Assembly (NCBI GenBank): GCA_016839745.1
Contig: JAEOTS010000123.1
Location: forward strand, 1 to 33,744
Origin: Promethearchaeota archaeon
GTDB taxonomy: Archaea > Asgardarchaeota > Lokiarchaeia > Sigyniarchaeales > SOKP01
Reading direction: 5' to 3'
Length of the DNA stretch: 33,744 nucleotides
A program made the position numbers and the translations under genes. Position 1 is the first letter of the stretch. Each line of letters opens with the position of its first letter. The notes below the pieces were generated by a model, which made no database searches, was not told the DNA's origin, and saw nothing but the letters and a program-made list of their open reading frames with translations. Shown here piece after piece: positions 7,810 to 24,224 of this stretch.

Positions 7810-7934
7810 AGCGGGGTGGGCTAGCCTGGTTTATGCCGCAGGGCTCATATCTCGACAATGTGTGGAAAAAAGAAATTTTTCACGCTTTTGGATGAGAAAC
7901 CCTGAGATCGTTCGTTCAAATCGAACCCCCGCTA
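7810..7934 (+). tRNA. Initiator tRNA-Met(CAT) with a 49-nt intron at 37/38 (7850-7898)
   Basis: Acceptor AGCGGGG/CCCCGCT with A1-U72, anticodon stem CAGGG/CCCTG (three consecutive G-C pairs), loop CT-CAT-A^A, T-loop TTCAAAT, BHB core CTCA/TGAG. CCA is not encoded. Confidence 0.95.
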
Positions 7935-7947
7935 CTTTTTCCTTTAT
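7935..7947 (+). terminator. Oligo-T tract after tRNA-iMet
   Basis: CTTTTTCCTTT immediately 3' of the discriminator, typical of archaeal U-rich terminators. Confidence 0.4.
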
Positions 7948-23748: not shown

Positions 23749-23908
23749 TACAGGGAGTGGGACTCGAACCCACGTAGAGCTATCTCACCGGATATCCCAT
23801 CAGAAACTCCGTTAATCAACGGAAGTGTTTAATATTGATCTTGAATCCGTGTTGTGAGAATTTTTCTCACAAAAGTCCGGCACCGTTGACCAACTTGGTT
23901 ATCCCTGC
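23749..23908 (-). tRNA. tRNA-Leu(CAA) with two introns (30 nt at about 32/33, 23874-23845; 46 nt at 37/38, 23839-23794)
   Basis: Acceptor GCAGGGA/TCCCTGT with A73, Leu-type D loop, long variable arm GAG-ATAG-CTC, T arm GTGGG-TTCGAGT-CCCAC. Double splicing gives CCGGA-CT-CAA-GA-TCCGG. Confidence 0.85.
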
Positions 23909-23993
23909 TTAAAATTCTGAATTATTTTGACTCTAATTTAATATTTTATATGTCTTGATTTAAATTAATAAAATTATAAATAGTTTTTTGATA

Positions 23994-24224
23994 TTAGGGC
24001 GTAAAAATAAACAGAAACACGAATAAAACAGCCATCATACCAACCATAAATAACATTTGAATCCTACTTTTTTTCTTCTGCTTTTTTTGGCTTGCATGAT
24101 AGTTGTCTCCACAATTTTGACTACAAAACTGCTTATCTGTTGACATTGCTTTTCCACAGATTGGGCAATGACTATGCGGTCCCCACTTCTTTTTAATTTG
24201 ATCTTTCCAAGTAGCTTGAGACAT
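23994..24224 (-). CDS. DUF2116-like Zn-ribbon protein with C-terminal TM helix
   Basis: PHSHCPICGK....FCSQNC, basic stretch, C-terminal TM. Confidence 0.85.
   Translation of the reverse strand: MSQATWKDQIKKKWGPHSHCPICGKAMSTDKQFCSQNCGDNYHASQKKQKKKSRIQMLFMVGMMAVLFVFLFIFTP

Follow-up and report, generated by a model that had tools for sequence, protein, structure and literature searches.

Multiple-intron tRNA genes of Thermoproteales were reportedly described by Sugahara et al. in 2007 and 2008. According to reviews (PMC4033280, PMC4090602), the tRNA genes of these archaea contain up to three bulge-helix-bulge (BHB) introns each, located also at non-canonical positions and surrounded by relaxed motifs, and their splicing endonuclease EndA is an (alpha-beta)2 enzyme with a Crenarchaea-specific loop (CSL). 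Heavily interrupted tRNA genes have been published for Asgard archaea as well, in 2024 (PMC11291895) and in 2026 (bioRxiv 10.64898/2026.10.13.758758), the latter study with the warning that relaxed BHB motifs are frequent by chance. An Asgard (alpha-beta)2 EndA with an L1 loop, tied to a broad substrate range, was reported by Kaneta et al. (2018, PMC5829648). In the multi-intron and permuted pre-tRNAs of Cyanidioschyzon merolae the BHB introns are removed stepwise, in a preferred order that tracks motif stability (PMC3728597).

Here we analyze a locus in the window (the whole stretch of 33,744 nt) from the genome G000 (3.5 Mb, assembly 89% complete), which very probably is a functional, single-copy tRNA-Leu(CAA) gene, with two EndA-type introns that would be spliced out of the anticodon loop. 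The first-pass annotation of this DNA had linked multi-intron tRNAs to Thermoproteales and other TACK lineages. The host is an Asgard archaeon (Promethearchaeota) and not a member of those lineages, and for Asgard archaea the phenomenon is already published.

Anatomy of the gene and its splice motifs

The gene comprises three exons and two introns and does not encode CCA (Table 1). The two strands of its anticodon stem (CCGGA/TCCGG) are separated by 83 nt, instead of the usual 7. The acceptor stem is GCAGGGA/TCCCTGT with a G1.U72 pair, the D-stem has 3 bp, the T-arm is GTGGG-TTCGAGT-CCCAC, and A73 can be read straight from the sequence. With both introns taken out, an 84-nt class II cloverleaf is obtained, in which all stems are intact and the restored 7-nt anticodon loop CU-CAA-GA is the same as the uninterrupted loop of orthologues. 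ARAGORN identifies this spliced sequence as tRNA-Leu(caa), and the features of a class II tRNA-Leu are all present (long variable arm, A73, Leu anticodon, 3-bp D-stem). The Leu(CAA) identity proposed on first pass is borne out, and the coordinates and sequences that had been assigned to the exons, introns and hairpin were all found to be correct. In the genomic sequence, the locus was picked up when the entire genome was searched with the Rfam tRNA model and by ARAGORN -i; default ARAGORN and Rfam at the gathering threshold, both run on the window only, gave no match at all. The G1.U72 pair, which is slightly unusual, occurs in all five genomes of the G000 clade (5/5); the two-intron locus L031, the "type B" genes described below and the genes of other families have G1-C72.

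Table 1. Features of the tRNA-Leu(CAA) locus and of a second interrupted tRNA gene, in positions of the window
Feature	Position	Strand	Remarks
Whole tRNA-Leu(CAA) gene	23749..23908	-	160 nt; Rfam tRNA model 41.2 bits end to end
5' exon, nt 1-32	23875..23908	-	acceptor 5' strand, D-arm, CCGGA anticodon-stem 5' strand, C32
Intron 1, position 32/33	23845..23874	-	30 nt; relaxed BHB; absent in some orthologues
9-bp hairpin TTGTGAGAA/TTCTCACAA in intron 1	23852..23872	-	inner helix of the intron 1 motif
Micro-exon UCAAG, nt 33-37	23840..23844	-	5 nt; whole anticodon CAA inside
Intron 2, canonical position 37/38	23794..23839	-	46 nt; strict hBHBh'
Conserved block CCGTTGATTAAC in intron 2	23811..23822	-	complementary to D-arm nt 15-26
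3' exon, nt 38-73	23749..23793	-	A38, anticodon-stem 3' strand, long variable arm, T-arm, acceptor 3' strand, A73
Acceptor-stem strands with G1.U72	23749..23755 with 23902..23908
AT-rich upstream block	23925..23944	-	conserved in G000-clade upstream flanks; AT-rich surroundings throughout
Upstream flank of the G000 clade	23909..23998		compared with the flanks of loci L006 and L022; conserved block of its own in the G000 clade
Initiator tRNA-Met(CAT) gene	7810..7935	+	one canonical 49-nt intron at 37/38

Intron 2 is a strict BHB tRNA intron by motif criteria, in agreement with the clean BHB that the first-pass annotation had noted. Its central helix is complete (CTCA/TGGG, 4/4), the inner and outer helices comprise 3 bp and 7 bp, respectively, and the bulges are AG^A and AT^A; a 4/4 helix combined with an inner one of 3 bp or longer was found in 0.1% of dinucleotide shuffles.

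A BHB consists of two 3-nt bulges with a 4-bp helix between them, and the motif of intron 1 is relaxed. Nucleotides 27-30 (CCGG) pair with the intron sequence ACGG in three positions out of four, the remaining one being a G.A mismatch that adjoins the 5' bulge; the bulges AC^U and AU^U are both in register, the outer helix has 2 bp, and the inner helix is offset by a U.C mismatch, which is followed by the 9-bp hairpin. The boundary of this intron is ambiguous by 1 nt (32/33 or 33/34), the motif being present at 32/33 only. A 3/4 central helix arises by chance in 29% of shuffles, hence the intron 1 motif of G000 is no evidence when taken alone, in agreement with the published warning about relaxed motifs (bioRxiv 10.64898/2026.10.13.758758). 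Thus, the relaxed motif assigned to intron 1 on first pass holds as an assignment, but it is too weak to carry a claim. Against shuffles, the hairpin is the sole significant element within intron 1 (-9.4 kcal/mol versus -2.3 +/- 1.7 kcal/mol, with 0.1% of shuffles at or below the observed energy), and in the genome G012 its pairing is kept despite a U-A to U.G change.

Orthologous loci and the evidence for two introns

Analysis of the genomic neighborhood revealed that the gene is flanked by DeoC and a 122-aa ORF on one side and by an amino-acid kinase (AAK) and a GHMP kinase on the other, and that this order (DeoC-orf122-tRNA-AAK-GHMP) is kept in all genus relatives examined. Comparison of the orthologous loci (L001-L007, L012, L015, L022-L034, L037) revealed five intron arrangements of one orthologous tRNA-Leu(CAA) gene in one genus. 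In the first, introns are present at both 32/33 and 37/38 (G000, G014, G015, G012 and G025, the named MAG loci L028, L029 and L032, and the distant locus L031). In the second, the 37/38 intron is alone and CTCAAG is unbroken (G033, G026); G042 and G046, from another family, are in the same 37/38-only state, with a neighbor match limited to the 122-aa ORF. The third arrangement has the 32/33 intron alone (36-40 nt) in a "type B" body with the anticodon stem GTGGA/TCCAT. The fourth combines a D-loop intron with the 32/33 intron (G017, G005), and the fifth has the D-loop intron alone and an intact CTCAAGA loop (G003, G007).

Intron 1 is exactly absent in G033, G026, G042 and G046, and in orthologues without it the sequence of the micro-exon is directly joined to C32; a homologue of intron 2 was found in G033, G026, G042 and L031. 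Where the 32/33 intron is present in other backgrounds, its central helix can be perfect. In L031, with neighboring proteins at 58% identity, intron 1 ends with CCGGAT, which yields a 4/4 helix CCGG/CCGG, and in type B genes (six named MAG loci) the helix is GTGG/CCAC (4/4), with the bulges AC^A and AC^U and an 11-bp hairpin. These alignments identify the 30 nt as an insert with respect to CTCAAG and show that the intron-side strand of the 32/33 central helix tracks whichever anticodon stem the gene has. The two-intron parse, put forward already in the first-pass annotation, was chosen because of these two groups of relatives, i.e. the orthologues that lack intron 1 and keep CTCAAG unbroken, and those with a perfect, co-varying 32/33 helix.

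The type B form was found in 12 genomes of the genus, none of which has type A, the form of G000. The part common to the 32/33 introns of the two types is limited to a GAGAA...TTCT hairpin core. The type B body differs from type A at many paired positions, although the neighboring genes place the two types in sister clades. A direct repeat, CCGGAC/ACGGAT, was considered as a possible target-site duplication and rejected: CCGG is self-complementary, and the type B intron end CCAC complements GTGG without forming any repeat. As a test for a mobile family, the rest of the G000 genome was searched with intron 1 and with intron 2, which gave chance matches of 10-14 nt only. In G011, the two halves of a type B gene (L035 and L036, on contigs C6 and C159) are located at contig ends inside the 32/33 hairpin; this apparent "split tRNA" was rejected as an assembly break, both pieces stopping at contig ends within the intron. 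The public contig of L023 (DATKTW010000159.1), with the actinobacterial title 'Candidatus Nanopelagicaceae bacterium', contains an AA-kinase/GHMP-kinase pair 77-84% identical to that of the Asgard window, and was probably binned or labelled wrongly as a MAG contig.

The pattern of conservation bears on one alternative, namely that the 30-nt insert is unspliceable and the gene of the G000 clade is a pseudogene, UUG codons being read by tRNA-Leu(UAA) or by the product of an unassembled gene. The relaxed intron 1 motif of G000, common in shuffles as it is, fits such a view, as do the incompleteness of the assembly and the presence of a tRNA-Leu(taa) gene in G000. However, the exons are 95-100% identical in at least five genomes and in a distant lineage while the introns drift (95-100% is also the range for the 5' exon among two-intron orthologues): between G000 and L031, exons are 96% identical, intron 1 61% and intron 2 66%, the introns retaining their lengths (30/31 and 46/47 nt) as well as their boundary bases. 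The stems are intact, the intron boundaries, bulge bases and the CGG tail of intron 1 are conserved among orthologues, and many members of the genus have the 32/33 intron in this gene, mostly with a perfect helix. The search for another Leu-CAA gene in the genome, a check proposed on first pass, revealed neither a second CAA anticodon loop with a tRNA body nor a type B gene in the 89% complete assembly of G000, and the two 100% complete genomes, G012 and G015, each have this gene as the only match. Because the exons are conserved while the introns drift, and because each genome has a single form, we consider a pseudogene improbable.

Another possibility is a single 76-nt intron at 37/38, the product of which would be a class II tRNA with the anticodon UUU (tRNA-Lys). 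This is exactly what ARAGORN -i reports (Lys(ttt)), just as the first-pass annotation had expected of an automatic misannotation. The 3' cut would be identical to that of intron 2, and the product of the 76-nt deletion folds as a cloverleaf too; the parses can therefore not be told apart by their folds only. However, the 5' site is poor (CTTT/TGGG, 3/4 including two G-U pairs, no inner helix), the TTT is part of the 5' terminus of intron 1, being absent in all orthologues without that intron, which have CTCAAG instead, and a normal class I tRNA-Lys(ttt) gene is present on contig C181. Recognition by archaeal LeuRS is through A73 plus the long variable arm and does not involve the anticodon. 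Given this mode of recognition, such a tRNA would place Leu at Lys codons. Altogether, a tRNA-Lys(UUU) from this locus appears very improbable.

For the history of the two introns in the tRNA-Leu(CAA) gene we used a tree of the neighboring proteins, which is unrooted and has weak basal branches. It groups the G000-type clade with the type B clade (support 100/100) and leaves G033 and G026 outside this pair; L031 is more distant still, its branch being long and weakly placed. Two histories can be considered. In one, the two-intron state would be old, and G033/G026 would have lost intron 1 and type B intron 2; in the other, intron 1 would have been gained on the branch leading to the two-intron type A genes, type B and L031. 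As regards the upstream flanks, the AT-rich block conserved in the G000 clade is a possible TATA/BRE region, for which its composition, set in AT-rich surroundings, is weak evidence. The sequence TTCGATAA, about 20 nt before the gene, is common to the upstream flanks of type B and G033, while the G000-clade flank has a different conserved block, and there are hints that the gene and its flank may have been replaced together in one lineage.

Splicing enzymes and proposed processing

The G000 genome encodes an RtcB ligase and, on contigs C86 and C93, two EndA paralogues of ~200 aa, each with both Pfam domains. The catalytic paralogue is closest to the A. pernix alpha subunit (E-value 1.4e-33, alignment with 3p1z_B); its Tyr/His/Lys triad is kept, and a CSL lysine (K58) is aligned to A. 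pernix K44 (ISKPR versus VEKPR). In the second, full-length, beta-like paralogue (202 aa), which is closest to the EndA proteins of M. kandleri and M. jannaschii, Ser replaces the catalytic His of M. jannaschii (alignment with 1a79_A). By these alignments the pair is classified as the (alpha-beta)2 type with the L1/CSL loop. Typing of the EndA subunits had been proposed on first pass as a check of an endonuclease with relaxed specificity, and one catalytic paralogue with the CSL lysine and one His-less paralogue are consistent with that prediction.

From the sequence anatomy, orthology, intron presence and absence, conservation pattern and enzyme genes, all of which can be seen directly, we infer splicing, the exact cuts and their order as follows. 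The 32/33 intron would be presented by pairing of nt 27-30 with the 3' end of intron 1. For intron 2, the intron 1 tail CGGAU may stand in for nt 28-32, so that a strict intron 2 motif would be formed on the unspliced precursor; it is the self-complementarity of the stem core CCGG that makes such a surrogate stem possible. The predicted surrogate conformer comprises the helix TTCA/TGGG and a 4-bp surrogate stem. The two motifs are unable to form together, because both use the CGG of intron 1. The (alpha-beta)2 endonuclease would cut in the four 3-nt bulges of the precursor, and RtcB would then ligate the micro-exon of 5 nt to the outer exons 1 and 3, which yields the 84-nt tRNA with the loop CU-CAA-GA. 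The introns are probably removed stepwise, without a fixed order, and either order looks feasible: the removal of either intron is predicted to leave the motif for the other one formable. In G000 the predicted intron 1-presenting conformer lies 2.6 kcal/mol above the minimum for the anticodon-arm region, and for the intron 2-presenting conformer on the unspliced RNA the difference is 7 kcal/mol; in L031 the predicted energies rank the two conformers in the opposite way. Most simply, the surrogate stem may be regarded as a by-product of the self-complementarity of CCGG. Two exact-match scans of public metagenome contigs for the spliced junction or an intron-less allele found neither.

The conserved block of intron 2 could form a duplex with the D-arm, which in G000 comprises 12 bp, including 2 G-U pairs, and is equaled in none of 2000 shuffles. 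The block, as (C)CGTTGATT(A)A(C), is found also in L006, L007 and L031, with a potential duplex of 9-12 bp and the rest of intron 2 diverging. The complementarity to the D-arm is significant against shuffles in six genomes (P <=0.005); in G026 and G042 the block is weaker, and G046 lacks it. The duplex is present in the predicted MFE structure of the precursor. The D-arm is invariant among the compared genes, which leaves no covariation signal for the duplex. Inspection of intron 2 by eye for a C/D-box or H/ACA guide led us to reject this candidate, since it has no C box, only 46 nt, and a complementary block that does not adjoin CUGA. We speculate that the precursor could act as a conformational switch, in which the CGG tail would pair either with nt 27-29, so that intron 1 is presented, or with nt 40-42, so that intron 2 is presented on the surrogate stem, and the block CCGTTGATT would sequester the D-arm in the 9-12 bp duplex until intron 2 is out, thereby imposing an order or a checkpoint. 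This model is rather unlikely; if it were true, there would be no tRNA-like fold before both introns are out, and the introns would have a role in folding or quality control instead of being passive passengers.

Finally, the mutually exclusive predicted conformers could be taken to suggest alternative splicing into Leu(CAA) and a second species, for instance one in which the micro-exon is skipped, the 5' cut in intron 1 being joined directly with the 3' cut in intron 2, but skipping leaves a 2-nt anticodon loop, unusable as a tRNA, and the relatives give no hint of a second product, which makes this explanation hardly credible.

Relation to known multi-intron tRNA systems

The two-intron tRNA-Leu(CAA) gene is a well-supported further case of the intron habit already known in Asgard archaea, and most tRNA genes of G000 appear to be interrupted and to need manual parsing. 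In this genome, no more than 11 tRNA genes without introns are reported by ARAGORN; the number rises to 25 if one intron is permitted, with several implausible identities among the calls (a 'Pyl', two 'Ser(gga)'). The window contains one more interrupted gene, for an initiator tRNA-Met(CAT) with A1-U72 and three G-C pairs closing the anticodon stem; its intron has a 4/4 helix and an outer helix of 5 bp, and the gene is missed by default ARAGORN and mislabelled as Ser(aga) by ARAGORN -i. For the annotation of such genomes it matters that an intron-aware finder gives a wrong amino acid (Lys for Leu) for the locus described here, after which the genome seems to be without tRNA-Leu(CAA). Gene-by-gene comparison with relatives mends the annotation without reliance on the splice motif.

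The multi-intron genes of Thermoproteales belong to a different phylum, and their introns form families that spread between tRNA genes, whereas intron 1 is without relatives in G000. As to the enzymes, the catalytic subunit is similar to that of A. pernix EndA (3P1Z/3AJV), with Tyr/His/Lys and the loop lysine kept; unlike the crenarchaeal beta subunits, the beta-like protein is full length and nearest to the EndA of M. kandleri and M. jannaschii. With the pre-tRNAs of Cyanidioschyzon merolae (PMC3728597) the precursor shares the presence of several BHB motifs in one molecule, stepwise removal being a prediction here. However, those genes are in a eukaryotic nucleus and their introns are located in separate, independently folding arms, whereas in the tRNA-Leu(CAA) precursor the motifs would compete for the same bases.

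The published Asgard cases (PMC11291895; bioRxiv 10.64898/2026.10.13.758758) are the most similar. They share with this locus several short introns of BHB type per gene (the motif of intron 1 being relaxed here), many of which are non-canonical and are overlooked or misinterpreted by standard annotation tools, as well as recurrent gains and losses at orthologous loci, a pair of EndA paralogues, and the lack of intron sequence families between genes. Neither two introns in one anticodon loop nor motifs that share bases are described in the main texts of these two papers, to which this comparison is confined. The published cases center on Freyr-, Jordi- and Atabeyarchaeaceae, whereas the genus analyzed here appears to be of the Lokiarchaeia type. 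The five arrangements, together with the 32/33 helix that tracks the anticodon stem, provide a compact natural test of the notion that introns persist only where a BHB can form. The picture of intron turnover in Asgard tRNA genes would also be extended to a Lokiarchaeia-type genus, with the known mechanism unchanged.
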